From Escherichia coli (lineage in GTDB: Bacteria; Pseudomonadota; Gammaproteobacteria; Enterobacterales; Enterobacteriaceae): a DNA stretch of 64,000 bases. The notes below the pieces were generated by a model. That model ran no database searches. It worked only from the letters and a program-made list of their open reading frames with translations, and was not told the origin of the DNA. Positions 490 through 63,192 of the stretch are shown piece after piece. The stretch is from NCBI RefSeq assembly GCF_003334305.1, contig NZ_QOWS01000001.1. The stretch is one strand, 5' to 3'. The position numbers were made by a program, and so were the translations under genes. How positions within the stretch are numbered: position 1 is the stretch's first letter; each line of letters starts with the position of its first letter.

Positions 490-1389
490 TTAACGCAATA
501 ATGGACAATCTGGTGGTAATCGACAACGCAACGCCGCCGGAAGTATTTCAATATGAAAGTTTTGTCCGCTCAACGGTTCGCCATCAAGATTAAAAGTGAT
601 TTCGTGTGGGGCTTGTATATCAAACCACGACGAAGCGCCTTCGATAATATTCGGGTTATCTTCGTCAGATTTTAAGGTTGATACGAGAGCCGGAAGAATT
701 TCATCGCCGGTAAAAATGCGCAGTTGCAGCAAGCCATCGTTAATTAACGCGTTCGGACACAATTGCTGACCGCCACCGGCCTGACGCCCGTTACCAATAC
801 CAATGACCAGGGCGTCACCTTGCCAGTGAAAGTTTTCACCGCGGATTTCACAACGGTCCGGTTGCAGAGTATCCATGCGCATTAAGCCATGAATGATGTA
901 AGAGACGCCACCCAGCGCGGCTTTTAATTTTTCCGGCGTTTCTGTGGTAATACGCGTCCCAAATCCGCCTGTCGCCATATTAATAAAACAGGTTTGTTTG
1001 TTGACCTGCGCCATATCTATCGCAATGGCGTTACCGGCAATTGCCAGTTTCAGCGCCTTATCCAGTGCCTCAGGAATCCCTACACTGGTGGCAAAATCAT
1101 TGGCGGTTCCTAATGGCAAAATTCCCAGCGCGGGTATGTCATCCCCCTCACACTGAATCAACGCCGTAGAAACTTCATTAATGGTGCCATCGCCACCACC
1201 GGCAATCACCGTTGCGACGCCCAACTTCCGGGCCTCCTCTACATATCGTGCGGCATCGCCTTTCTCCCAGGTGACCCGCACATGGATCGTCATTCCTTCC
1301 TCACGCAACAGCATAATTGCTTCGCGCAAGGGTAGATTGTCAGTACTTTTGCCATTAAGAATCAGTAAGCTGGCGGGAAATTCTGCCAT
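490..1389 (-). CDS. yegS: lipid kinase YegS (DAG-kinase-like fold)
   Basis: 299-aa ORF; GGDGT motif and the NGKS…EEG…[15 protein letters not shown] pattern typical of YegS/diacylglycerol-kinase catalytic domains; length matches YegS. Confidence 0.85.
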
Positions 1390-2121: not shown

Positions 2122-2279
2122 GAATATTTTTTGGTAAGCGTCAAACATGCGCGTTCTGGTTGTGCTTAGCCGGAACCTGTGCGAGCACGATGCCGTTACG
2201 TGAAAGGCATCGTGCTATGAAGGGAGATTCTATCGATGTGGTCAATGGAAGACGGTGACCAGGGATAGGGCTTATGCAT

Positions 2280-2306
2280 AAAAAATAAGCCCGTGTAAGG
2301 GAGATT
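2280..2306. repeat. attL core (27 bp, AAAAAATAAGCCCGTGTAAGGGAGATT)
   Basis: Exact direct repeat of 33122..33148, read directly from the sequence; lies immediately beside the integrase gene. Confidence 0.85.
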
Positions 2307-2385
2307 TAGGGTGTCACCAGTAGGGGCTTTCAACGGTACAATGCGGGTTTGAGCGGCATAAATTACCACTGAAAGCCCTTAAACG

Positions 2386-3399
2386 TTACTCTACTGTGGA
2401 CACTGTGTGGACACTCTCGGCCTCAGTACCACCTCTTAGCGGATTAAGAGAAATGGCGTCCTGAAGGTACTCTGGCGCAAAATGAGCGTAAACCATAGTT
2501 TGCTCAATCCGCGTGTGACCTAGTATCCGTTGTAGCGTGATAATACTTCCTCCATTAATCATGAAATGAGTGGCAAAGCTGTGCCTTAGTGCATGTGTGG
2601 CTTGCCCCATTGGCAAATCCGGTTTTATTGCTTTCATTGTTCGTCTGAAGCGAGGGTAATCAGCATCAGGGAATAAAAAACCTCGTTTGTTATCCGCGAT
2701 CATTTTGGCAACAGCCTCTGAGATCGGGACGGTGCGTGGTTTGTTTGTTTTCGTTTTAACAAACGTGACGCGGTTATGGATGATATTTTCTGCTTTCAAA
2801 CGAGCTGCTTCTCCCCAACGTGCTCCTGTACTCAGGCAAAGAATCGCAATCTTTTTATTGTCGCCGTCAAGTGCTGCAAGCAGTAAGGCAATTTCTTCCT
2901 GTGTTAGATAGCCTGTTTCTGGTTTTTCCTCCTTAAGCCTTTTTGTCCCTCTGATAGGGTGCTCACCAAAGAATAACTCCGCTTCAATCAGGGCTGTAAA
3001 CATGCCGCTAATACATGTTAAATCACGATTGATACTCGAAGGTTTAATACCCTGACTTCTTCGGGTGGCGCAGTACTGGCTGATAAGCGATTTCGTAATT
3101 TGAAATGCGCATGGGTCATTCGTTATTTTTGTGAAGATTTCAATTTTTCCAAGATTAGATTTCCCATGCTCTTCGTGTTTACCCTTTAAATCCCACCAGA
3201 TCTGTGTCAGCTCCGACAGACGTCGCTTGTCTGTTGGTTTTGATAGCCATTCTTTATTGTGGTGGTTGTACAACGTGTATTTCTCGAAAGCGACAGCTTC
3301 GCTTTTCTTATCAAACTTCCTACGGATGCGTTTTCCATTACGTCCAGTAGGGCGGATGTCCACTTCATATCGACCATCATCGAGTTTTTTGATTGCCAT
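2386..3399 (-). CDS. int: tyrosine integrase (P2 Int-like, 337 aa)
   Basis: 337 aa as in P2 Int; C-terminal HxxR…Y catalytic region (ATHALRHSFATHF…MVYAHF); adjacent to attL. Confidence 0.9.
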   Translation of the reverse strand: MAIKKLDDGRYEVDIRPTGRNGKRIRRKFDKKSEAVAFEKYTLYNHHNKEWLSKPTDKRRLSELTQIWWDLKGKHEEHGKSNLGKIEIFTKITNDPCAFQITKSLISQYCATRRSQGIKPSSINRDLTCISGMFTALIEAELFFGEHPIRGTKRLKEEKPETGYLTQEEIALLLAALDGDNKKIAILCLSTGARWGEAARLKAENIIHNRVTFVKTKTNKPRTVPISEAVAKMIADNKRGFLFPDADYPRFRRTMKAIKPDLPMGQATHALRHSFATHFMINGGSIITLQRILGHTRIEQTMVYAHFAPEYLQDAISLNPLRGGTEAESVHTVSTVE

Positions 3400-3514
3400 C
3401 AGAAAACCCTCCGAGTGGTGTGTTTTTTTGCGACTACTAATCGCTTTTTTCGTGGTGGCTGAAATTTAGCCACCAATAGTAGGCACTTGTGATGAATATA
3501 TTCACGATGAATTG

Positions 3515-3814
3515 TTAACCAGTCTTTTGACCGGAGTGGGGCGACGTTGTTTCGTTTTGCCCAAAGTGTGCGAGAGCGGGCGCAATTTGCCCGGACTCAG
3601 GAGCGATCTGATTGGTCATGAACCATAAAGTGTATTTGGTGAATTGTGGGGTCTGCAGGATGTTCATCATGACATCTGTTGGAGGTGTTGAACGACCACT
3701 TTCATAGTAACTCAGCGTGCCATACGGAACCCCTGTTAAATCAGCAAGTTGTTGTCTGCTCAAATACTCTGATTTTCGCATTAAGACTATCTTCTCGCTT
3801 ATCGTGTTTGACAT
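3515..3814 (-). CDS. C: immunity repressor C (99 aa)
   Basis: 99 aa with an N-terminal HTH (LSRQQLADLTGVPYGTLSYYE); divergent from cox, as in the P2 lysis-lysogeny switch. Confidence 0.8.
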   Translation of the reverse strand: MSNTISEKIVLMRKSEYLSRQQLADLTGVPYGTLSYYESGRSTPPTDVMMNILQTPQFTKYTLWFMTNQIAPESGQIAPALAHFGQNETTSPHSGQKTG

Positions 3815-3928
3815 GGTGTTTAGATCTCAATAGTATTTAGTTTAGATGTAGATTGTTTAGTGCTTGGATGTGGGCACTAAAAGGCATTATAAGACATTAA
3901 ACGCAATTCATGAGGGCTAGAGGACGAC

Positions 3929-4204
3929 ATGAGCAAGCAAGTAACACTCATGACTGATGCGATTCCTTATCAGGAGTTCGCAAAACTAATAGGAAAATCG
4001 ACAGGAGCGGTTCGTCGGATGATCGATAAAGGAAAGCTGCCTGTAATTGATATGACCGATCCACAATCAGCTTCAGGTCGTGCAGGTGAATATTGGGTAT
4101 ACCTTCCGGCATGGAATAACGGACTAAAACTGGCTTATGAAAGCCGCCCTAAAGAGATTCGTGACGGCTGGTTGATGTGGTTAGGTCTCGGTGAACCACG
4201 TTAA
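3929..4204 (+). CDS. cox: Cox excisionase / early repressor (91 aa)
   Basis: 91 aa, same size as P2 Cox; divergently transcribed from C, first gene of the early operon. Confidence 0.8.
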   Translation: MSKQVTLMTDAIPYQEFAKLIGKSTGAVRRMIDKGKLPVIDMTDPQSASGRAGEYWVYLPAWNNGLKLAYESRPKEIRDGWLMWLGLGEPR

Positions 4205-4385
4205 GGAGAACCGTATGAATGAGCCTCGTTGTATTGCTCAGTTACTGCGTAACGAAAGCCCCAGGGCGATTGACTTCACCATCACCCACGGTAAGGGGCG
4301 TAAGGGAATCATTATCCGCACCAAAAAACAGAGTCCGTTAAAAAAGGCTCTGACCTTTCTGAAAAGCCGGAGGGTATGGAAATGA
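4191..4385 (+). CDS. small early-operon hypothetical protein (P2 orf78 position)
   Basis: 64-aa ORF overlapping the cox stop and ending at the B start; support is positional only. Confidence 0.35.
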   Translation: MNHVKENRMNEPRCIAQLLRNESPRAIDFTITHGKGRKGIIIRTKKQSPLKKALTFLKSRRVWK

Positions 4386-4882
4386 CAGTGATGACGCTCA
4401 ATCTCGTTGAAAAACAGCCAGCAGCTATGCGCCGGATAATTGGTAAGCATCTTGCCGTTCCTCGCTGGCAGGATACATGTGATTATTATAATCAGATGAT
4501 GGAGCGCGAACGGTTAACGGTTTGCTTCCATGCTCAGTTAAAACAGCGTCACGCAACGATGTGTTTTGAAGAAATGAACGACGTCGAACGTGAACGACTG
4601 GTATGTGCAATTGATGAATTGCGTGGTGCATTCTCAAAACGCCGTCAGGTTGGCGCAAGTGAGTATGCATATATTAGTTTTTTAACAGTCAGTCAGCGTC
4701 GTACTTTATTTATGCATGCCGGATTGACTGAAAAAGAATTCAACCAGCCATACTGGCGAATTAATGAAGAGTCATGTTACTGGCGTGATGCTTTATTCCG
4801 TGCATTACGTGAATTATTCAGTCTGTTTGAGTATGCACCGACAATTCTGACGTCGGTAAAACCGGAGCAATATCTGCATTAA
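4376..4882 (+). CDS. B: replication protein B (helicase-loader-like)
   Basis: 168-aa ORF in the P2 gene B position and of the same size class (P2 B ~166 aa). Confidence 0.7.
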   Translation: MEMTVMTLNLVEKQPAAMRRIIGKHLAVPRWQDTCDYYNQMMERERLTVCFHAQLKQRHATMCFEEMNDVERERLVCAIDELRGAFSKRRQVGASEYAYISFLTVSQRRTLFMHAGLTEKEFNQPYWRINEESCYWRDALFRALRELFSLFEYAPTILTSVKPEQYLH

Positions 4883-4912
4883 GTAATTAACCAGAGTTTT
4901 TAACGCACTTAA

Positions 4913-5170
4913 TTGTGCGGGGCTTCTTTTTGCCTGGAGAAAGTTATGCATACAGTTTCTGAAAATCAGTGCGGTATATACGCATTACTGCTGCAACAGG
5001 CCAGAACCGAAGCACAGGCCGACGCTGCGACGCGCTTTTCTTCTCATCTTGATGCCATGATTCGCCACATCACAAAGGCGGAGTTATCCCGCGTGGAGAT
5101 AGTCGAGCTGCTCAGTCAGGAGTCGGAAAAATTTCACAATATCGGATTGTCTCGCGGGGAGGTGCTTTGA
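4913..5170 (+). CDS. early-operon hypothetical protein (P2 orf80 position)
   Basis: 85-aa ORF, translationally coupled to the next gene (overlapping stop/start). Confidence 0.45.
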
Positions 5171-5472
5171 TGTTCTGTTCTCGTGCAGTTGTATTACTGA
5201 ATAACGCCTTAAAAATCGCCGTTATGAAAAATGGCGATTTGTCTCTTATTCAACTTGGTCTTGATAAAGAAAAACGCGAAATAACTGAATCTGTTATCGC
5301 GATTTATCAGAGTGAATTAAACCTCCTGTCTGATGTGGTCAATTTACTTGTTAAACGCGCTGTATTTCACAAGCAAATTTCCTCCGTGGATGAACTGACG
5401 AAATTAACGACAGAAATCGCCAGCTATTGCGCTGATGAATTTAAAAAACTGAACGACAAAAGGAACTGGTAA
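5167..5472 (+). CDS. early-operon hypothetical protein (P2 orf81 position)
   Basis: 101-aa ORF; overlapping stop/start with neighbours on both sides. Confidence 0.5.
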
Positions 5473-5696
5473 TGCCGGACAACGTAGATTTTATTCAGGA
5501 ACAACAGGCTGAATTACTGGAGCGCCAGATTAACGCGGCAAGGGTAAAACATTGCGGTGCTTCTGCGCTGGTTTGCGAAGAGTGTGACGCGCCAATACCT
5601 GCTGCCCGTCGTGCGGCTTACCCGTCAGCCACGCGTTGTGTTTCCTGTCAGTCAGTCTTTGAAGCAAAAAACAAACATTACCGGAGAACGGCATGA
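5472..5696 (+). CDS. TraR/DksA-family C4 zinc-finger protein (P2 orf82 position)
   Basis: 74 aa with a CxxC-N17-CxxC arrangement (CEECDAP…RCVSCQ), the C4-type zinc finger of TraR/DksA-like proteins. Confidence 0.6.
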   Translation: MPDNVDFIQEQQAELLERQINAARVKHCGASALVCEECDAPIPAARRAAYPSATRCVSCQSVFEAKNKHYRRTA

Positions 5697-5968
5697 GTAT
5701 TCGTATTGAAATTGGCGAACGTTATGTCGTTACCAGTGACAGCTTTCAGTTTATTCTCCACGAGAAAAAGAGAGCGGAAAGCGGTAAAAACGCCGGTCAG
5801 GAATGGCTGGCGGTGGTTGGTTATTACCCGAAATTAAGCCAGCTCGTTTCAGGCCTGATGCATCACGATATTCTGACCGGAAGCGCAAAGTCTTTTGCTG
5901 ATTTAAACGTGCAGGTTGAGCAACTCAGCAAGCGTTGTTCAGAGGCTTTTGGCTCATATGGCCGTTAA
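5693..5968 (+). CDS. early-operon hypothetical protein (P2 orf83 position)
   Basis: 91-aa ORF overlapping the start of gene A. Confidence 0.45.
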   Translation: MSIRIEIGERYVVTSDSFQFILHEKKRAESGKNAGQEWLAVVGYYPKLSQLVSGLMHHDILTGSAKSFADLNVQVEQLSKRCSEAFGSYGR

Positions 5969-8243
5969 AGCCTCCGGGCGTTTTGTCCCTCCGTCAGCAT
6001 TTGCCGCAGGCACCGGTAAGATGTTTACCGGTGCTTATGCATGGAACGCGCCACGCGAGGCCGTCGGGCGCGAAAGACCCCTTACACGTGACGAGATGCG
6101 TCAGATGCAAGGTGTTTTATCCACGATTAACCGCCTGCCTTACTTTTTGCGCTCGCTGTTTACTTCACGCTATGACTACATCCGGCGCAATAAAAGCCCG
6201 GTGCACGGGTTTTATTTCCTCACATCCACTTTTCAGCGTCGTTTATGGCCGCGCATTGAGCGTGTGAATCAGCGCCATGAAATGAACACCGACGCGTCGT
6301 TGCTGTTTCTGGCAGAGCGTGACCACTATGCGCGCCTGCCGGGAATGAATGACAAGGAGCTGAAAAAGTTTGCCGCCCGTATCTCATCGCAGCTTTTCAT
6401 GATGTATGAGGAACTCAGCGATGCCTGGGTGGATGCACATGGCGAAAAAGAATCGCTGTTTACGGATGAGGCGCAGGCTCACCTCTATGGTCATGTTGCT
6501 GGCGCTGCACGTGCTTTCAATATTTCCCCGCTTTACTGGAAAAAATACCGTAAAGGACAGATGACCACGAGGCAGGCATATTCTGCCATTGCCCGTCTGT
6601 TTAACGATGAGTGGTGGACTCATCAGCTCAAAGGCCAGCGTATGCGCTGGCATGAGGCGTTACTGATTGCTGTCGGGGAGGTGAATAAAGACCGTTCTCC
6701 TTATGCCAGTAAACATGCCATTCGTGATGTGCGTGCACGCCGCCAGGCAAATCTGGAATTTCTTAAATCGTGTGACCTTGAAAACAGGGAAACCGGCGAG
6801 CGCATCGACCTTATCAGTAAGGTGATGGGCAGTATTTCTAATCCTGAAATTCGCCGGATGGAGCTGATGAACACCATTGCCGGTATTGAGCGTTACGCCG
6901 CCGCAGAGGGTGATGTGGGGATGTTTATCACGCTTACCGCGCCTTCAAAGTATCACCCGACACGTCAGGTCGGAAAAGGCGAAAGTAAAACCGTCCAGCT
7001 AAATCACGGCTGGAACGATGAGGCATTTAATCCAAAGGATGCGCAGCGTTATCTCTGCCATATCTGGAGCCTGATGCGCACGGCATTCAAAGATAATGAT
7101 TTACAGGTCTACGGTTTGCGTGTCGTCGAGCCACACCACGACGGAACGCCGCACTGGCATATGATGCTTTTTTGTAATCCACGCCAGCGTAACCAGATTA
7201 TCGAAATCATGCGTCGCTATGCGCTCAAAGAGGATGGCGACGAAAGAGGAGCCGCGCGAAACCGTTTTCAGGCAAAACACCTTAACCAGGGCGGTGCTGC
7301 GGGGTATATCGCGAAATACATCTCAAAAAACATCGATGGCTATGCACTGGATGGTCAGCTCGATAACGATACCGGCAGACCGCTGAAAGACACTGCTGCG
7401 GCTGTTACCGCATGGGCGTCAACGTGGCGCATCCCACAATTTAAAACGGTTGGTCTGCCGACAATGGGGGCTTACCGTGAACTACGCAAATTGCCTCGCG
7501 GCGTCAGCATTGCTGATGAGTTTGACGAGCGCGTCGAGGCTGCACGCGCCGCCGCAGACAGTGGTGATTTTGCGTTGTATATCAGCGCGCAGGGTGGGGC
7601 AAATGTCCCGCGCGATTGTCAGACTGTCAGGGTCGCCCGTAGTCCGTCGGATGAAGTTAACGAGTACGAGGAAGAAGTCGAGAGAGTGGTCGGCATTTAC
7701 GCGCCGCATCTCGGCGCGCGTCATATTCATATCACCAGAACGACGGACTGGCGCATTGTGCCGAAAGTTCCGGTCGTTGAGCCTCTGACTTTAAAAAGCG
7801 GCATCGCCGCGCCTCGGAGTCCTGTCAATAACTGTGGAAAGCTCACCGGTGGTGATACTTCGTTACCGGCTCCCACACCTTCTGAACACGCCGCAGCAGT
7901 GCTTAATCTGGTTGATGACGGTGTTATCGAATGGAATGACCCGGAGGTCGTGAGGGCGCTCAGGGGCGCATTAAAATACGGGCTGAGAACACCAAATCGT
8001 CAGCAGAGAAACGGAAGCCCGTTAAAACCACATGAAATTGCACCATCGGCCAGACTGACCCGGTCGGAAAGAATGCAAATTACCCGTATCCGCGTTGACC
8101 TTGCTCAGAACGGTATCAGGCCGCAGCGATGGGAGCTTGAGGCGCTGGCGCGTGGCGCGACCGTAAATTATGACGGGAAAAAATTCACGTATCCGGTCGC
8201 TGATGAGTGGCCGGGATTCTCAACAGTAATGGCGCGGATATAA
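5958..8243 (+). CDS. A: replication initiation endonuclease A (rolling-circle initiator)
   Basis: Listed ORF is 775 aa, roughly 760 aa from the internal Met; rolling-circle Rep-type motifs are visible (HWHMMLF HUH-like motif; GAAGYIAKYISK active-site tyrosine region). Exact start uncertain (5916 or 5958). Confidence 0.85.
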   Translation: MAVKASGRFVPPSAFAAGTGKMFTGAYAWNAPREAVGRERPLTRDEMRQMQGVLSTINRLPYFLRSLFTSRYDYIRRNKSPVHGFYFLTSTFQRRLWPRIERVNQRHEMNTDASLLFLAERDHYARLPGMNDKELKKFAARISSQLFMMYEELSDAWVDAHGEKESLFTDEAQAHLYGHVAGAARAFNISPLYWKKYRKGQMTTRQAYSAIARLFNDEWWTHQLKGQRMRWHEALLIAVGEVNKDRSPYASKHAIRDVRARRQANLEFLKSCDLENRETGERIDLISKVMGSISNPEIRRMELMNTIAGIERYAAAEGDVGMFITLTAPSKYHPTRQVGKGESKTVQLNHGWNDEAFNPKDAQRYLCHIWSLMRTAFKDNDLQVYGLRVVEPHHDGTPHWHMMLFCNPRQRNQIIEIMRRYALKEDGDERGAARNRFQAKHLNQGGAAGYIAKYISKNIDGYALDGQLDNDTGRPLKDTAAAVTAWASTWRIPQFKTVGLPTMGAYRELRKLPRGVSIADEFDERVEAARAAADSGDFALYISAQGGANVPRDCQTVRVARSPSDEVNEYEEEVERVVGIYAPHLGARHIHITRTTDWRIVPKVPVVEPLTLKSGIAAPRSPVNNCGKLTGGDTSLPAPTPSEHAAAVLNLVDDGVIEWNDPEVVRALRGALKYGLRTPNRQQRNGSPLKPHEIAPSARLTRSERMQITRIRVDLAQNGIRPQRWELEALARGATVNYDGKKFTYPVADEWPGFSTVMARI

Positions 8244-8599
8244 TGACAAAGATTCACAAAGTAAAGCTGCACGCAAGATATTTCAACCTTGTGCTGGAGG
8301 AAAAAGAAACGCACAGAATTTAGGGGGATAGCCGTTATCATGTGTATGAAGCACTTGAAATGTATCTGCATCACTTGGGAGTGTGTCAACGGGGAATTTC
8401 CATCTATGTGATTTTTTGAGAGCAATGCAGTGAAGATAAAGATACTTATTATAAATCAATGTGATAGATGGTGCCTCGCAAACGTAAATGATAGTTTTGA
8501 AGCTTCAGGGCTGATGTCGTTCATAAGACTATGTTTACGCTATCATTTATGATAAAAATAATTAATTTTTATCATAAAGATTCAACAGAGGATATGTTG

Positions 8600-10105
8600 A
8601 TGAATCAACTAAAATCAATGAATATCAATAAGTTACTTTTGGATGTTGATAACCCTCGTTTCCCGACGTCAGCAGAAAATCAGCGTGATGCTATTGCCAA
8701 GATGCTTGACTTGCAGTACGACCGCATTTATCGCTTGGCTAAAGATATTGCTTCGAAAGGTTTAGATCCGTCTGAAAACATATTAGTTTATCCTAGTGAA
8801 GAGGAATCTGGCTTTTTCGTCGTTGCTGAAGGTAATCGTCGAGTTACAGCCCTTAAACTTTTACACTCTCCTAGACTTGCACCAACAGAAAAAGCACGGA
8901 AAGCTTTTGAAAAACTTAAGATTACTCAGCTTAAAGATATTAATGTTATAGATAACTGCGTTCTTTTTGACGATGATGAATATGAGCATTGGGTCAATTT
9001 AAAGCATACTGGTCAAAATGCTGGAGTTGGAAGAGTTGAATGGACTGCAACAGAAAAAGCACGACATCTGGCTAGGATGGGTAAGCAGTCATTTGGTAAT
9101 CAAATACTTACATTTATAGAGTTCAATACTGATTTATATAAAGAGATAATTGCTAAAAAAAGACTTTTAAAAATCACAAACATCACGCGTCTTTTTGGTG
9201 ATTTAAAGGTGAGGGATTATTTTAATTTAAAAAGCATTAATGGAGTTCTATACTCATATCAGCCTTATGAACGTTTTTGTGCACAATTAAAAAATATTTT
9301 AGATGTAATGATTGAAGAGGATGATAAAGGTAAGGCTTGTTTTACTGTTAATAGGATTCGTAGCCAAGATGACAGGGTTACATTTATTATTGAACAAAAA
9401 ATAAAACCTTCAGAATCTCTTTTAGATAAGCCGTGGAGTTTATTAGAGCCTAAATCTTTTCTTACAGAGAAAAAACATGATTCTATTGACAAAAATGATG
9501 CATCTGTGAGTGTAAAGAAAGCAGGTCTTTCAGAAGGTGATGCCTTAAAGAATACAGGTGTGGATAAACAGGAAGATGATTATTCTAGACATGTAGGCAC
9601 AGAAGAGAGTAAATCTAAAGTTTCGGGTACGGAACAGAATAAAAACAAGGGAAAAACTCCTCCTAAAGTAGATCGTAATGTGTTGGTGCCATCTTATGTG
9701 AAATTTAATTTTAGAGGGCATAAGAAATGCTCTAGAATATTTAATGAGCTTAAGTCGCATCTGACATTTGATAACACCCCTAATGCTATCTCAATATTGT
9801 TGAGAATATTTATAGATCTCTCTGTAAGCACTTTTGTTGAAGAAAACAAGTTACAATTTAAGGAACCACATAGAACTCCAGGGCTTCATGATAAGGTTAA
9901 AATGTGTGCTAATTTCCTTCGGGAAAATAAAAAGATGACGGGGAGTCAATGTACGGCTGTAATAACTTTCTCGAGCCAAATAACTAAACATGATGGTTCA
10001 TTGCAGCAGTATGTACATAACCCACACTTAATTCCCTCAAAAGAGGCTGTCAACACTGAGTGGGATAACTTTGAGTTGTTATTAAGCCTTATTTGGAGTG
10101 AGTGA
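8600..10105 (+). CDS. ParB/Srx-fold N-terminal domain protein (~501 aa) with K/E-rich linker and uncharacterised C-terminal domain; cargo gene
   Basis: N-terminus INKLLLDVDNPRF followed by FVVAEGNRRVTALKLL, which match ParB N-domain box I and the GxRR arginine patch. Start chosen at MNQLK because AGAGGA lies 7 nt upstream. Visibly AT-rich with atypical codon usage; occupies the P2 tin/old slot. Confidence 0.7.
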   Translation: MNQLKSMNINKLLLDVDNPRFPTSAENQRDAIAKMLDLQYDRIYRLAKDIASKGLDPSENILVYPSEEESGFFVVAEGNRRVTALKLLHSPRLAPTEKARKAFEKLKITQLKDINVIDNCVLFDDDEYEHWVNLKHTGQNAGVGRVEWTATEKARHLARMGKQSFGNQILTFIEFNTDLYKEIIAKKRLLKITNITRLFGDLKVRDYFNLKSINGVLYSYQPYERFCAQLKNILDVMIEEDDKGKACFTVNRIRSQDDRVTFIIEQKIKPSESLLDKPWSLLEPKSFLTEKKHDSIDKNDASVSVKKAGLSEGDALKNTGVDKQEDDYSRHVGTEESKSKVSGTEQNKNKGKTPPKVDRNVLVPSYVKFNFRGHKKCSRIFNELKSHLTFDNTPNAISILLRIFIDLSVSTFVEENKLQFKEPHRTPGLHDKVKMCANFLRENKKMTGSQCTAVITFSSQITKHDGSLQQYVHNPHLIPSKEAVNTEWDNFELLLSLIWSE

Positions 10106-10174
10106 GATTTGTCTACATCTGGACATGGATGTCCAGAAACTGATAAACTACAAAATCAGGAATGAGAGGGATTT

Positions 10175-11059
10175 ATGAAATTTTATACTCCATTAAGATA
10201 CCCCGGCGGGAAAGGTAAGTTATCTTACTTTTTAAAAGATGTTATTGAAAAAAACTCGTTGAATGATGGAGCATATGCAGAACCTTACGCTGGTGGTGCA
10301 GGGGTGGCTTTAGAATTATTATTGGAAGAGTATGTCCGTAAAATCTATATAAATGATGCAGATTTTGCTGTTTATTCTTTTTGGTCATCTGTTGTTAGTG
10401 ATACTGATGAGCTTTGCCGACTTATTAGCCGAGCAAAGATAGATATGGATGAATGGTCTTTTCATCGCTATGTTATTTCGAATCCTTCTGAGTTTACTAA
10501 GCTTGAGGTTGGCTTTGCTGCGTTTTTCTTAAATAGAACAAATCGTTCAGGTATTCTCAAGGCGGGGGTTATAGGCGGGAAATCACAAAATGGAAAATGG
10601 AAAATGGATGTTCGCTTTAACAGGGCGGATTTAATTTCAAGAATTGAGAAGATAGCAAATTATAATCAAAGAATAGTAGTAACTAATCTGGATGCTTTGG
10701 ATTTTCTTGATGTCTTGAATTTTATGGATAATATGGGAAAGGTGGATAAAAATAAAATTCTTTTGTATTTGGATCCTCCTTACTATATTAAAGGGCAAGG
10801 GCTTTACAGGAATTTTTATGAGCATGATGATCATGTATTGGTTATGAAGAAACTCACAGAAATTAATTTCCCAAATTGGCTTGTTTCTTATGATAACGCT
10901 AAGGAAATTAAAGATATTTATAATGGATTTCCGCAAGTTGAGTATTCATTGCAATATACAGCGCATCTCAAAAAATCTGGAGAGGAAGTGATGATTTTTT
11001 CTCCTGAAATAATTATTCCTAATACCCTGAAAGGGGGCTCAATGCCAACTTGCGCCTGA
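10175..11059 (+). CDS. Dam-family (D12 class, alpha-type) N6-adenine DNA methyltransferase; cargo gene
   Basis: Motif I EPYAGGAGV (FxGxG AdoMet-binding) near the N-terminus and catalytic motif IV DPPY (YLDPPYY) about 160 aa later, the alpha-class order seen in Dam. AT-rich, 70 bp downstream of the ParB-like gene on the same strand. Confidence 0.8.
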   Translation: MKFYTPLRYPGGKGKLSYFLKDVIEKNSLNDGAYAEPYAGGAGVALELLLEEYVRKIYINDADFAVYSFWSSVVSDTDELCRLISRAKIDMDEWSFHRYVISNPSEFTKLEVGFAAFFLNRTNRSGILKAGVIGGKSQNGKWKMDVRFNRADLISRIEKIANYNQRIVVTNLDALDFLDVLNFMDNMGKVDKNKILLYLDPPYYIKGQGLYRNFYEHDDHVLVMKKLTEINFPNWLVSYDNAKEIKDIYNGFPQVEYSLQYTAHLKKSGEEVMIFSPEIIIPNTLKGGSMPTCA

Positions 11060-11207
11060 TTTTACTTATTTTTTGTCAGTAAGTAATTAGTTTGGTGCAT
11101 TTATTTGCATTCATTTTTAAATGCCAGTTCTGGTATCTAACATCAGTGCTGGCGCATTCTAACCATTACTGCTGCACTGCATTTAAAGCCCTGCATGAAG
11201 CGGGCGG

Positions 11208-32720: not shown

Positions 32721-32804
32721 TGTTTTTGTTTTATCTGTTTGTTTTGTAAGGATAAATTAACTAAAATGGCACCATCAACAAAACCGGAAGAGGTGCTCGC
32801 GATG

Positions 32805-33020
32805 TTTCATTGTCCTTTATGCCAGCATGCCGCACATGCGCGTACAAGTCGCTATATCACTGACACGACAAAAGAGCGTTATCATCAGTGCCAGAACGTG
32901 AATTGCAGCGCCACGTTCATCACTTATGAGTCGGTACAGCGATACATCGTGAAGCCGGGAGAAGTCCACGCCGTAAGGCCGCACCCGTTGCCATCAGGGC
33001 AGCAAATTATGTGGATGTAA
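32805..33020 (+). CDS. ogr: late gene transcriptional activator Ogr (72 aa, zinc finger)
   Basis: MFHCPLCQHAAHARTSRYITDTTKERYHQCQNVNCSATF… with a CxxC…CxxxxC zinc finger; 72 aa from the internal Met of the listed ORF. Confidence 0.9.
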   Translation, partial: FHCPLCQHAAHARTSRYITDTTKERYHQCQNVNCSATFITYESVQRYIVKPGEVHAVRPHPLPSGQQIMWM

Positions 33021-33030
33021 TTACAAACAG

Positions 33031-33057
33031 AAAGCCCCTCAGTCGAGGGGCTTTTTT
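33031..33057 (+). terminator. rho-independent terminator after ogr
   Basis: GC-rich hairpin GCCCCTC-AGTC-GAGGGGC followed by TTTTTT. Confidence 0.75.
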
Positions 33058-33121
33058 GTCGATGTGGTCAATGTGTGGACGTGACCAGAAATAAATCCTT
33101 TTATTTCAATTTATTGTACGT

Positions 33122-33148
33122 AAAAAATAAGCCCGTGTAAGGGAGATT
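33122..33148. repeat. attR core (27 bp), coincident with the 3' end of cyaR
   Basis: Exact direct repeat of 2280..2306. Confidence 0.85.
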
Positions 33149-33208
33149 ACACAGGCTAAGGAGGTGGTTCCTGGTACAGCTAGCATTTTATGGGTTATGT
33201 TTTTCAGC
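33122..33208 (-). ncRNA. cyaR: CyaR (RyeE) Hfq-dependent sRNA, 87 nt
   Basis: The reverse complement reads GCTGAAAAACATAACCCATAAAATGCTAGCTGTACCAGGAACCACCTCCTTAGCCTGTGTAATCTCCCTTACACGGGCTTATTTTTT, which matches the CyaR sequence as I recall it, including the terminator hairpin and U-tail; lies between ogr and yegQ. Confidence 0.8.
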
Positions 33209-33292
33209 GAAACGGATGATAACCTTAATAAATGCAGCTGTATGTGATCGGTTTCTAAGAATTTTCCATCCGGGAAAAATAATCGAAATTAA

Positions 33293-34654
33293 TCACTTAC
33301 CGTGGGGATTACGCGTGGTTTCCCCGGAGAAATTACGCATCAGCAGCGCGTAATTGAGCTCAAGATCCTGCGGGACCGGGAGCCACACAGTATAACCATC
33401 GCCTGGTGCTATCGGCATAGCTTCGCCTTTGGCGTTTTCCATGTGCTCAAGGGTAAAATTAATGTTGCCTTGCGGCGTCATCAGCTCAAGGCTGTCGCCA
33501 ACGGAGAATTTATTTTTCACCGCTACCGCCGCGAGGTCCCCCTTGCGCTCACCGGTAAACTCACCAACAAACTGCTGGCGGTCAGAAACTGAATAACCGT
33601 ATTCGTAGTTCTGATAATCGTCGTGAGTATGACGACGCAGGAAACCTTCGGTATAGCCACGATGCGCTAGACCTTCCAGAGTTTCCAGCAGGCTGGTATC
33701 GAACGGTTTTCCCGCAGCGGCGTCATCGATAGCTTTGCGGTAAACCTGTGCGGTGCGTGCACAATAGTAGAAAGATTTGGTACGACCTTCGATTTTCAGC
33801 GAATGCACGCCCATTTTGGTCAGGCGTTCTACATGGGCGATGGCGCGCAGATCTTTCGAGTTCATGATGTAAGTGCCGTGCTCATCTTCAAACGCGGTCA
33901 TATACTCGCCCGGACGCTGGGCCTCTTCGATCATAAACACTTTGTCGGTTGGTGCGCCGATACCCAGCGTCGGCTCAACATTTTGCACCGGAATCGGCTC
34001 GTACTTGTGTACGATGTTGCCAACATCATCTTCTTTCCCTTCCTGGACGTTGTACTCCCAGCGGCAGGCGTTGGTGCAGGTGCCCTGGTTCGGGTCGCGC
34101 TTGTTGATATAGCCAGAGAGCAGGCAGCGACCGGAGTAGGCCATGCACAGCGCGCCGTGAACGAAGATCTCGATCTCCATATCCGGCACCTGATTGCGGA
34201 TCTCTTCAATCTCTTCCAGCGACAGCTCGCGAGAGAGGATCACGCGGGTCAGGCCCATTTGCTGCCAGAATTTCACCGTCGCCCAGTTCACGGCGTTAGC
34301 CTGCACCGAAAGGTGGATCGGCATTTCAGGGAAGTGCTCACGCACCAGCATAATCAGCCCTGGATCGGACATAATCAGCGCATCCGGCCCCATTTCCACC
34401 ACCGGTTTCAGGTCACGGATAAAGGTTTTCAGCTTGGCGTTGTGCGGTGCAATGTTGACCACGACATAAAACTTTTTCCCCAGCGCGTGGGCTTCATTGA
34501 TGCCGAGCTGAAGATTTTCGTGGTTGAATTCGTTGTTGCGCACACGCAGGGAATAACGCGGCTGGCCCGCATAAACAGCATCTGCGCCATAAGCGAAAGC
34601 GTAACGCATATTTTTCAGCGTTCCCGCCGGGGAAAGGAGTTCCGGTTTAAACAT
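33293..34654 (-). CDS. yegQ: U32-family peptidase-like protein YegQ (453 aa)
   Basis: 453 aa; cysteine-rich central region (CxxxC…C) typical of U32 peptidase/RlhA-like proteins; conserved neighbour of cyaR. Confidence 0.85.
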   Translation of the reverse strand: MFKPELLSPAGTLKNMRYAFAYGADAVYAGQPRYSLRVRNNEFNHENLQLGINEAHALGKKFYVVVNIAPHNAKLKTFIRDLKPVVEMGPDALIMSDPGLIMLVREHFPEMPIHLSVQANAVNWATVKFWQQMGLTRVILSRELSLEEIEEIRNQVPDMEIEIFVHGALCMAYSGRCLLSGYINKRDPNQGTCTNACRWEYNVQEGKEDDVGNIVHKYEPIPVQNVEPTLGIGAPTDKVFMIEEAQRPGEYMTAFEDEHGTYIMNSKDLRAIAHVERLTKMGVHSLKIEGRTKSFYYCARTAQVYRKAIDDAAAGKPFDTSLLETLEGLAHRGYTEGFLRRHTHDDYQNYEYGYSVSDRQQFVGEFTGERKGDLAAVAVKNKFSVGDSLELMTPQGNINFTLEHMENAKGEAMPIAPGDGYTVWLPVPQDLELNYALLMRNFSGETTRNPHGK

Positions 34655-62712: not shown

Positions 62713-63180
62713 AGTAAGTACAAAACCTATTCGTTGTATGACAAATGTCACAATTCGATCATGGATAAATCGGGGCAAAAATGCAATGTTGCAGCACTAT
62801 TTATCTCATATTATTTGAGGGTAATAACCTCACATTATCCCTGAATTAAAAGGGGTAATAATAAAACATTATTTAAGAAATATCGCATGTGGAGACGCAA
62901 TATTAAATATTGTCAACCTAAAGAAACTCCTAAAAACCATATTGAATGACACTTAATATAATTCTTAAAAATAGCCAATTGCCGAATTGTTACCTTGCCT
63001 GCTATTCCGTTAGCTGTAACACTTCCTCCTGCATTATTGGAGAGCCAATATTCAATTACCATAATGTCACCTTATATTCGGAAGTTAATTTCCGTAATAA
63101 CCCTTTCTCATCAACGATTGTATGCAGAGAGGGTTTGAAAAATTAAGCTAAATCAGTGTATTGGTAGCTAAAAAGCCAGG

Positions 63181-63192
63181 GGCGGTAGCGTG
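63181..63192 (+). promoter_or_regulatory. ops (operon polarity suppressor) element GGCGGTAGCGTG in the wza leader (RfaH recruitment / JUMPstart)
   Basis: Exact GGCGGTAG ops core about 180 nt upstream of the wza start codon, in the long untranslated leader. Confidence 0.65.

Follow-up and report, generated by a model that had tools for sequence, protein, structure and literature searches.

We wanted to investigate what lies on the host side of attL where a P2-type prophage has entered the 3' end of the sRNA gene cyaR in Escherichia coli. By the window we mean the whole analysed stretch of 64,000 nucleotides (assembly GCF_003334305.1, contig NZ_QOWS01000001.1). Judged from its sequence, the segment 2122-2385 contains the attL junction of a complete P2-type prophage (2280-33148). 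The original prediction suggested that the host side of this junction resembles phage DNA, being left from an earlier P2-family occupant of the same site that had been deleted down to about 150 bp. P2 prophage integration at cyaR is textbook knowledge and already documented. We take the attachment site in the 3' end of cyaR to be locI, the preferred P2 site in E. coli. The gene, also known as ryeE, has been named as a P2 target (PMC3603311, citing Wassarman 2001). In its table of insertion sites, the E. coli W genome paper (PMC3032704) gives "cyaR RNA" as the site of Wphi2 in strain W and places ogr-D' of K-12 and P2*B of strain B at the same site; as far as that paper's scoring of strains goes, the Crooks strain has no element there. 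A description of an older remnant beside this site was not found in the searchable literature, in a search that ran without the key P2 att papers.

We analyzed the resident element. The 27-bp core AAAAAATAAGCCCGTGTAAGGGAGATT was found in two exact copies on the + strand, at 2280-2306 and at 33122-33148, and in shuffled sequence none are expected even with 3 mismatches permitted. The core at 2280-2306 is identical to the annotated attP core of P2 (NC_001895). Joining 32790-33148 to 2307-2700 gave a reconstructed attP with 100% identity to P2 24024-24776 over 753 nt, including the ends of int and ogr and the Int, IHF and Cox sites annotated in P2. The insert (2307-33121) was compared with NC_001895 by BLAST and gave three collinear blocks of 97.4-99.3% identity (P2 1-12623, 17522-24382 and 24355-30396), of which the last corresponds to window 2279-8321 at 99.3% identity. 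Collinearity was broken only at 8322-11206 and 23831-26293, two cargo hotspots in which the P2 sequence is replaced.

The coordinates of the sites in the prophage arms were transferred from the P2 record at 100% identity. On the left, all on the + strand, are the P' arm (2307-2420), its Cox sites (2323-2396) and its Int arm-type repeats (2394-2420). A complete int gene for the P2 integrase of 337 aa (2386-3399, minus strand) adjoins attL. On the right, ogr (32802-33020, + strand), the gene of the late-gene activator, is complete, is the last gene before attR, and agrees with Ogr in translation and with the P2 annotation. It is followed on the + strand by the P arm (33059-33123) with the Int arm-type footprint (33059-33086; 24293-24320 in the P2 record) and the IHF site (33090-33123). 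By every feature that sequence can test, the resident element is an ordinary lysogen of the P2 type in cyaR: it has core repeats at both ends, one of them inside the target gene, and int, ogr and the arm sites are placed as in bacteriophage P2 (Peduovirus P2), with which its genome is collinear at 97-99% identity. It differs from P2 in having a PD-Lambda-5 gene pair at the tin/old position and a replaced, shorter tail-fibre and Z/fun region.

The first of the replaced segments, 8322-11206, is at the position of the P2 orf91/tin/old cargo hotspot, and a predicted two-gene PD-Lambda-5 anti-phage system was found there on the + strand: protein A (8531-10105; PDLC03998, E = 5.9e-168) and protein B (10175-11059; PDLC04018, E = 2.6e-121), the latter a Dam-like methyltransferase. 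The second, 23831-26293, contains a tail-fibre gene (24008-25687) with repeat-rich and Gly-rich C-terminal parts, and a 144-aa ORF (25663-26097), different from that of P2, at the tail-fibre assembly position. The prophage is ~2.7 kb shorter than P2, and absence of the P2 Z/fun gene accounts for much of the difference.

The right core copy lies within an intact cyaR. The Rfam model RF00112 (CyaR_RyeE) matched over its full length at 33125-33210 on the minus strand (100.7 bits, gathering score 47), and identity with K-12 cyaR (b4438) set the bounds of the gene at 33122-33208, minus strand. With these bounds, the right core is the last 27 nt of cyaR. It supplies the terminator loop, the 3' stem arm and the U-tract, and therefore the CyaR sRNA is unchanged by the integration. 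The 11-bp terminator stem was present in the fold of the cyaR RNA, and no such hairpin was formed by the left core copy with the phage DNA downstream of it (z = +0.28). A partial second copy of cyaR in the attL flank was ruled out, as a permissive Rfam scan of 1700-2500 gave no CyaR fragment. Recombination by P2 Int would have taken place between the 27-bp core of attP and the same 27 bp at the cyaR 3' end, duplicating the core. The original prediction had described these two exact core copies, the right one as the terminator end of cyaR, and a prophage between them whose integration rebuilds the sRNA 3' end, and this was borne out, with the prophage of the P2 type and cyaR intact; the proviso added to it, that the core might lie outside the CyaR 3' end, does not apply to a core that forms the end of the gene.

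We then compared the host flank with the phage arm. The 15-nt block TCGATGTGGTCAATG at 2233-2247 is identical to 33058-33072 (15/15), and the 8-nt block GTGACCAG at 2255-2262 to 33080-33087 (8/8); the spacing between the blocks is 7 nt in both host flank and phage arm. The resemblance had been noticed in the original prediction, with ranges correct within 2 nt. A match like the 15-mer by itself was reached in 1 of 5000 dinucleotide shuffles. In gapped local alignment, 2122-2279 scored 22 against the P2 P arm (shuffle mean 8.1, reached by 0 of 2000 shuffles, z = 10.5). The matching fossil P arm (2233-2262, + strand) corresponds to the P2 Int arm-type footprint. Its first repeat, TGTGGTCA, is retained and fits the P2-type Int arm consensus tgTGGaCa (PMC3448106), and the second is decayed to GGAAGACG. 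What remains of the IHF-site region of this arm (2263-2279, + strand) is 16 bp shorter than in P2. When the E. coli flank was aligned with the P arms of P2 and of P2-like prophages at the cyaR site in Citrobacter, Buttiauxella and Enterobacter, it could be aligned with them column by column except for this 16-bp gap.

Other genomes hold the same flank in different states. Escherichia sp. MOD1-EC7003 has the same upstream host sequence running through a full-length arm into the core (z = 13), E. coli MRSN346647 retains 12 of the 16 bases deleted in the IHF region, and a different version in the Escherichia lineage L031 has a full IHF-like region and has lost the arm repeat. These versions point to a stub that has been decaying by small deletions. 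On the strength of the alignments, the stub on the host side is a true relic of the P arm of a P2-family attP, left by an earlier occupant of the same site, as the original prediction had proposed. A second AAGGGAGATT at 2221-2230 was considered as another decayed core and rejected; the segment is polymorphic, being AAGGAGGATT in K-12, Nissle and 536. In the local alignment 2221-2230 is opposite the 3' arm and T-tract of the P2 ogr terminator, which at most hints that the fossil may reach into a decayed terminator.

A relic of this kind might still be kept for a present function. An Int arm-type site 18 bp from attB could favour locI or alter excision at attL, or the stub could be a 3' regulatory element of yegR. 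Comparison of seven Escherichia sequences showed no variation in the first arm repeat and its surroundings, while neighbouring positions vary. However, seven sequences give little power, and the lineage L031 has lost the repeat. The IHF region that a working arm needs is truncated and polymorphic for indels. Moreover, in a published description (PMC3448106) attB has the same sequence as the attP core, and the arm-binding sites belong to attP. In 1625 genomes identity over the flank 2100-2306 is as low as 90-95%, so that constraint on the whole region is not strong. We consider retention for a function rather unlikely.

If the stub is a decayed attP arm, the other end of the occupant may be sought between cyaR and its ancestral left neighbour. 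This neighbour is yegS, a 299-aa ORF for a lipid kinase (490-1389, minus strand) that is annotated in K-12 and other E. coli. Next to it is the ancestral yegS-cyaR spacer, the original B arm of attB (1390-1476), which is collinear up to 1470 with the genome labelled E. coli E69 and with E. albertii; in both, an att core comes directly after the spacer. In the window the spacer is followed on the + strand by a fossil attL core, AAAAAGTCAGTTCAAGTATGGAGGATT (1477-1503, identical to the live core at 18 of 27 positions), and by a stub of a fossil P' arm of ~30 nt, CAGTGGTTACCACCAGGAGCTTGCAATGG (1504-1533), which aligns with TAGGGTGTCACCAGTAGGGGCTTTCAACGG in the P' arm of P2. The alignment of 1477-1533 with the P2 core and P' arm begins at core base 1 (score 19, 0/2000 shuffles, z = 8.4). 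MOD1-EC7003 has a better preserved fossil attL (core 21/27, score 27, z = 14.2). Past these 57 nt, similarity to the P' arm was no better than in shuffles. The ends are arranged as expected of an integrated element, with host arm, core and P' arm on the left and P arm, core and host arm on the right.

E69 shows the empty site. Its homology to the window ends at 1470 and resumes at 2280, and between these points it has only left-flank bases of its own and the core, so that the host arms are joined at a single core and yegS starts ~100 bp from the cyaR core. The fossil attL begins where homology to this genome stops. As its yegS is only 87.7% identical to that of the window, a divergence about as large as for E. 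albertii, E69 is not E. coli proper. Among the matches listed there were 120 cyaR-bearing loci of Enterobacterales species representatives, a set without E. fergusonii and Salmonella, for which reason the insertion is dated only by a rough bracket. In 44 of these 120, yegS starts less than 200 bp from the cyaR core, and in 24 more it starts within 700 bp; on these counts, yegS adjoining cyaR is the ancestral arrangement among the matches listed. The original prediction allowed that the left-flank similarity could simply be part of ancestral attB. This is correct in so far as the stub belongs to the attB region of today (5373 of 5426 E. coli genomes), but it is absent from the deeper ancestral attB, in which yegS is beside cyaR.

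The ancestral arrangement also bears on the direction of descent. Similarity alone gives no direction, and the host flank could be the original from which P2-type phages took their P arm, for instance by imprecise excision; the 23-nt block CTATCGATGTGGTCAATGGAAGA does not vary among the seven Escherichia sequences. Against this, the phage stretch is an Int footprint with two tgTGGaCa repeats, and such repeats occur on the P' arm too, whereas the host copy has one intact repeat and a truncated IHF region. Most Enterobacterales among the matches listed have no such sequence beside cyaR and have yegS there instead. Capture by a phage would also leave the decayed core and P' arm at the far side unexplained. 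Therefore we hold the reversed direction to be very unlikely and keep to descent of the host copy from a phage arm.

In E. albertii NBRC 107761, which serves as an independent check on the left junction, homology to the window likewise ends at 1470. It is followed by a well-preserved core, a P' arm, ~3.4 kb of other sequence, a P arm and the core at cyaR. This remnant resembles the fossil of the window in that the yegS spacer is interrupted at the same base on the left, with core and P' arm after it, and in having P arm and core at cyaR. It differs in its length of ~3.4 kb, in its well-preserved attL with a P' arm nearly identical to that of P2, and in having no yegR; on these differences we regard it as a separate, younger event. 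It extends over ~3494-6890 of the E. albertii locus (L013, oriented as the window), and its P arm is diverged and its interior has transposase-like sequence.

We assessed how widely the fossil is distributed. The flank 2100-2306 (207 bp, which start at the end of yegR and include the core) was present, at a coverage of at least 80%, in 5373 of 5426 complete E. coli genomes, and the fossil attL was present in 5375 of the 5426. A composite empty site (1900-2306 joined to 33149-33550) occurs without interruption and at 100% identity in, for example, the strains E2865 and NCTC86, and in 4562 genomes its two halves are at most about 900 bp apart. In K-12 the same stub is followed by a core cut off after GCCCGTGTA, by yegZ (D') and ogrK, and then by a fresh P arm leading to the complete core at cyaR. 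The yegZ and ogrK genes of K-12 thus lie rightward of the stub, which is older than the K-12 remnant and independent of it.

The K-12 remnant is the cryptic prophage PR-X (yegZ, which is a D' fragment, ogrK and attR). PR-X and the fossil are both of the P2 family and shrunk by internal deletion, both have a core at each side, and in both the attR core is the end of cyaR. In PR-X, however, P2 genes can still be recognised, the P arm is nearly intact, and the element is limited to some strains, whereas in the fossil no phage gene is recognisable and the attL core is decayed (18/27). The fossil is fixed in E. coli, and in K-12 it is situated on the left side of PR-X. As no P2 gene fragments such as D' and ogr are found between its cores, the fossil is not a remnant of the PR-X type. 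The original prediction had contrasted its flank with K-12, said to retain ogrK and yegZ. K-12 does have these genes here, but this is not an alternative state, as the stub is in K-12 as well.

The stub could otherwise be a recent remnant in this strain of a previous P2 lysogen, like PR-X and deleted further to about 150 bp. It does come from a P2-family P arm, and K-12 demonstrates that P2 prophages at this site undergo internal deletion. Nevertheless, the stub is present in nearly all E. coli, including otherwise empty sites 100% identical to the window flanks, it precedes the truncated core and yegZ/ogrK of K-12, and a lineage about 7% diverged also has it (MOD1-EC7003 is ~93% identical to the window in trhP). 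It is also heavily decayed, with the second arm repeat lost and 16 bp deleted. A strain-level origin is highly improbable, and the size of about 150 bp has to be corrected: the remnant is about 0.8 kb and includes the decayed attL at 1477-1533 and yegR. Chance resemblance of intergenic sequence to the P2 P arm, for which the shortness of the blocks (15 and 8 nt) might speak and which the original prediction had named as its possible undoing, can be dismissed as next to impossible, given that none of the 2000 dinucleotide shuffles reached the score (z = 10.5), that the match in the sister lineage runs through the IHF region to the core (z = 13), and that a matching decayed attL is at the other end.

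We consider it very probable that the resident prophage adjoins, at its attL, an old P2-family fossil of ~0.8 kb (1477-2306) that is fixed in E. coli. The core at 2280-2306 (+ strand) would then serve both the resident prophage, as its attL, and the fossil, as its attR. In the alignments it is only the ~57 nt at the left and ~47 nt at the right that mark the fossil as P2-family.

The interior of the fossil is of a different character. In 1470-2279 no P2 similarity was found beyond the arms and core described above, and a distant-mode blastn search of 1534-2232 against a collection of 50,697 phage records gave no phage similarity except for two records that contain host flank. G+C is 33-39% across 1500-2100, compared with about 50% in yegS. 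The interior carries yegR (1804-2121, + strand; ORF and K-12 annotation), a small lipoprotein gene of low G+C. Just upstream of the fossil P arm there is a perfect 11-bp hairpin without T-tract (2184-2216, + strand; fold of 2170-2240, -25.5 kcal/mol, z = -2.7), at which a consensus scan called no terminator. The YegR family (PF27694) is hardly found outside Escherichia/Shigella; distant homologues are located in an Enterobacter genome, in a region rich in IS elements, and in a metagenome, where the chromosomal context is unrelated. In MOD1-EC7003, yegR is mostly missing and one piece of it is inverted. A yegR knockout had no phenotype in the conditions tested (PMC3708739). The low G+C, the narrow and patchy spread of YegR and the loss of most of yegR in MOD1-EC7003 fit an interior of foreign, dispensable DNA. 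These data do not prove the ancient phage to be the source of yegR, and the gene could have been inserted after the phage had decayed instead of having been carried by it.

A tblastn search with YegR against the phage records matched only those containing host flank. The two records with host flank, yegR and fossil arm were ON470606.1 (32004-32983) and AY639599.1 (1-321). The PHROG family phrog_21109 also matches YegR; this probably reflects errors in prophage boundaries, and the match was left out of the evidence. Boundaries of prophages at the cyaR site appear to be drawn too wide in public data.

A 170-bp AT-rich segment directly after the yegR stop was found in B2-type strains, namely Nissle 1917 (427-596 of locus L003) and 536, and in MOD1-EC7003. 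It is absent from the window and from K-12 and constitutes an indel polymorphism inside the fossil. As a candidate for an att-derived segment it was rejected, being unrelated to att sequences.

From these relationships, junction positions and distributions we infer the following order of events. A P2-family element with the same core would have integrated between yegS and cyaR in an E69-like background, before E. coli split from the lineages of MOD1-EC7003 and SCPM-O-B-8794. Nearly the whole element would then have been deleted, leaving ~0.8 kb, which would consist of the attL core with ~30 nt of P' arm (1477-1533), AT-rich DNA with yegR, ~47 nt of P arm (2233-2279) and the attR core (2280-2306). 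The attR core may have stayed perfect because it is the cyaR terminator and under selection, and the attL core may have drifted to 18/27 because it had no function. Having been preserved, the attR core would have remained a live attB. Later P2-type phages would have landed there again, giving PR-X (ogrK/yegZ) in K-12 and the full prophage of the window. This account takes both ends of the fossil to stem from a single event; they could be from different ones, as later integrations with internal deletions would overwrite the P arm beside the core. E69 could also have lost the island by excision, which would imply an att-bounded element even so.

As a tentative extension of this history, which we regard as possible but not probable, the preferred P2 site would itself be the attR of an ancient P2-family prophage, a self-renewing landing pad kept by the terminator, with the conserved orphan gene yegR as its last surviving cargo and an arm repeat 18 bp from attB that could still bias integration or excision. 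If this is true, the landing pad gathers nested remnants, first the fossil, then PR-X in K-12 and then full prophages.

The result is a modest one and would not surprise a specialist, but it corrects the notion of an "empty" site. The P2 attachment region regarded as "empty" and used as the E. coli reference is not in its original state and includes a fixed remnant of ~0.8 kb with yegR. The fossil bears on the annotation of yegR, and programs that call prophage boundaries can wrongly assign the fossil arm to the resident prophage; YegR is already contained in some phage records and in a PHROG family. The locus also illustrates cleanly how an attachment site may be kept alive by selection on an RNA terminator while the other junction decays.

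Further features were observed at this locus elsewhere and in the rest of the window. A 9688-bp contig of a MAG labelled Collinsella sp. has an E. coli-type cyaR beside a K-12-like ogr and P arm. Over the cyaR end its identity to the window is 98%, and it probably belongs to Escherichia and was misbinned into an actinobacterial MAG. Three tandem copies of SIB RNA (Sib antitoxin) were found at 47329-48134 on the minus strand (138-150 bits each). K-12 has two SIB copies, sibA and sibB, at the corresponding locus. At the right edge of the window, a JUMPstart element (RF01707, 57.3 bits) at 63154-63192 on the + strand probably marks the start of a polysaccharide gene cluster.
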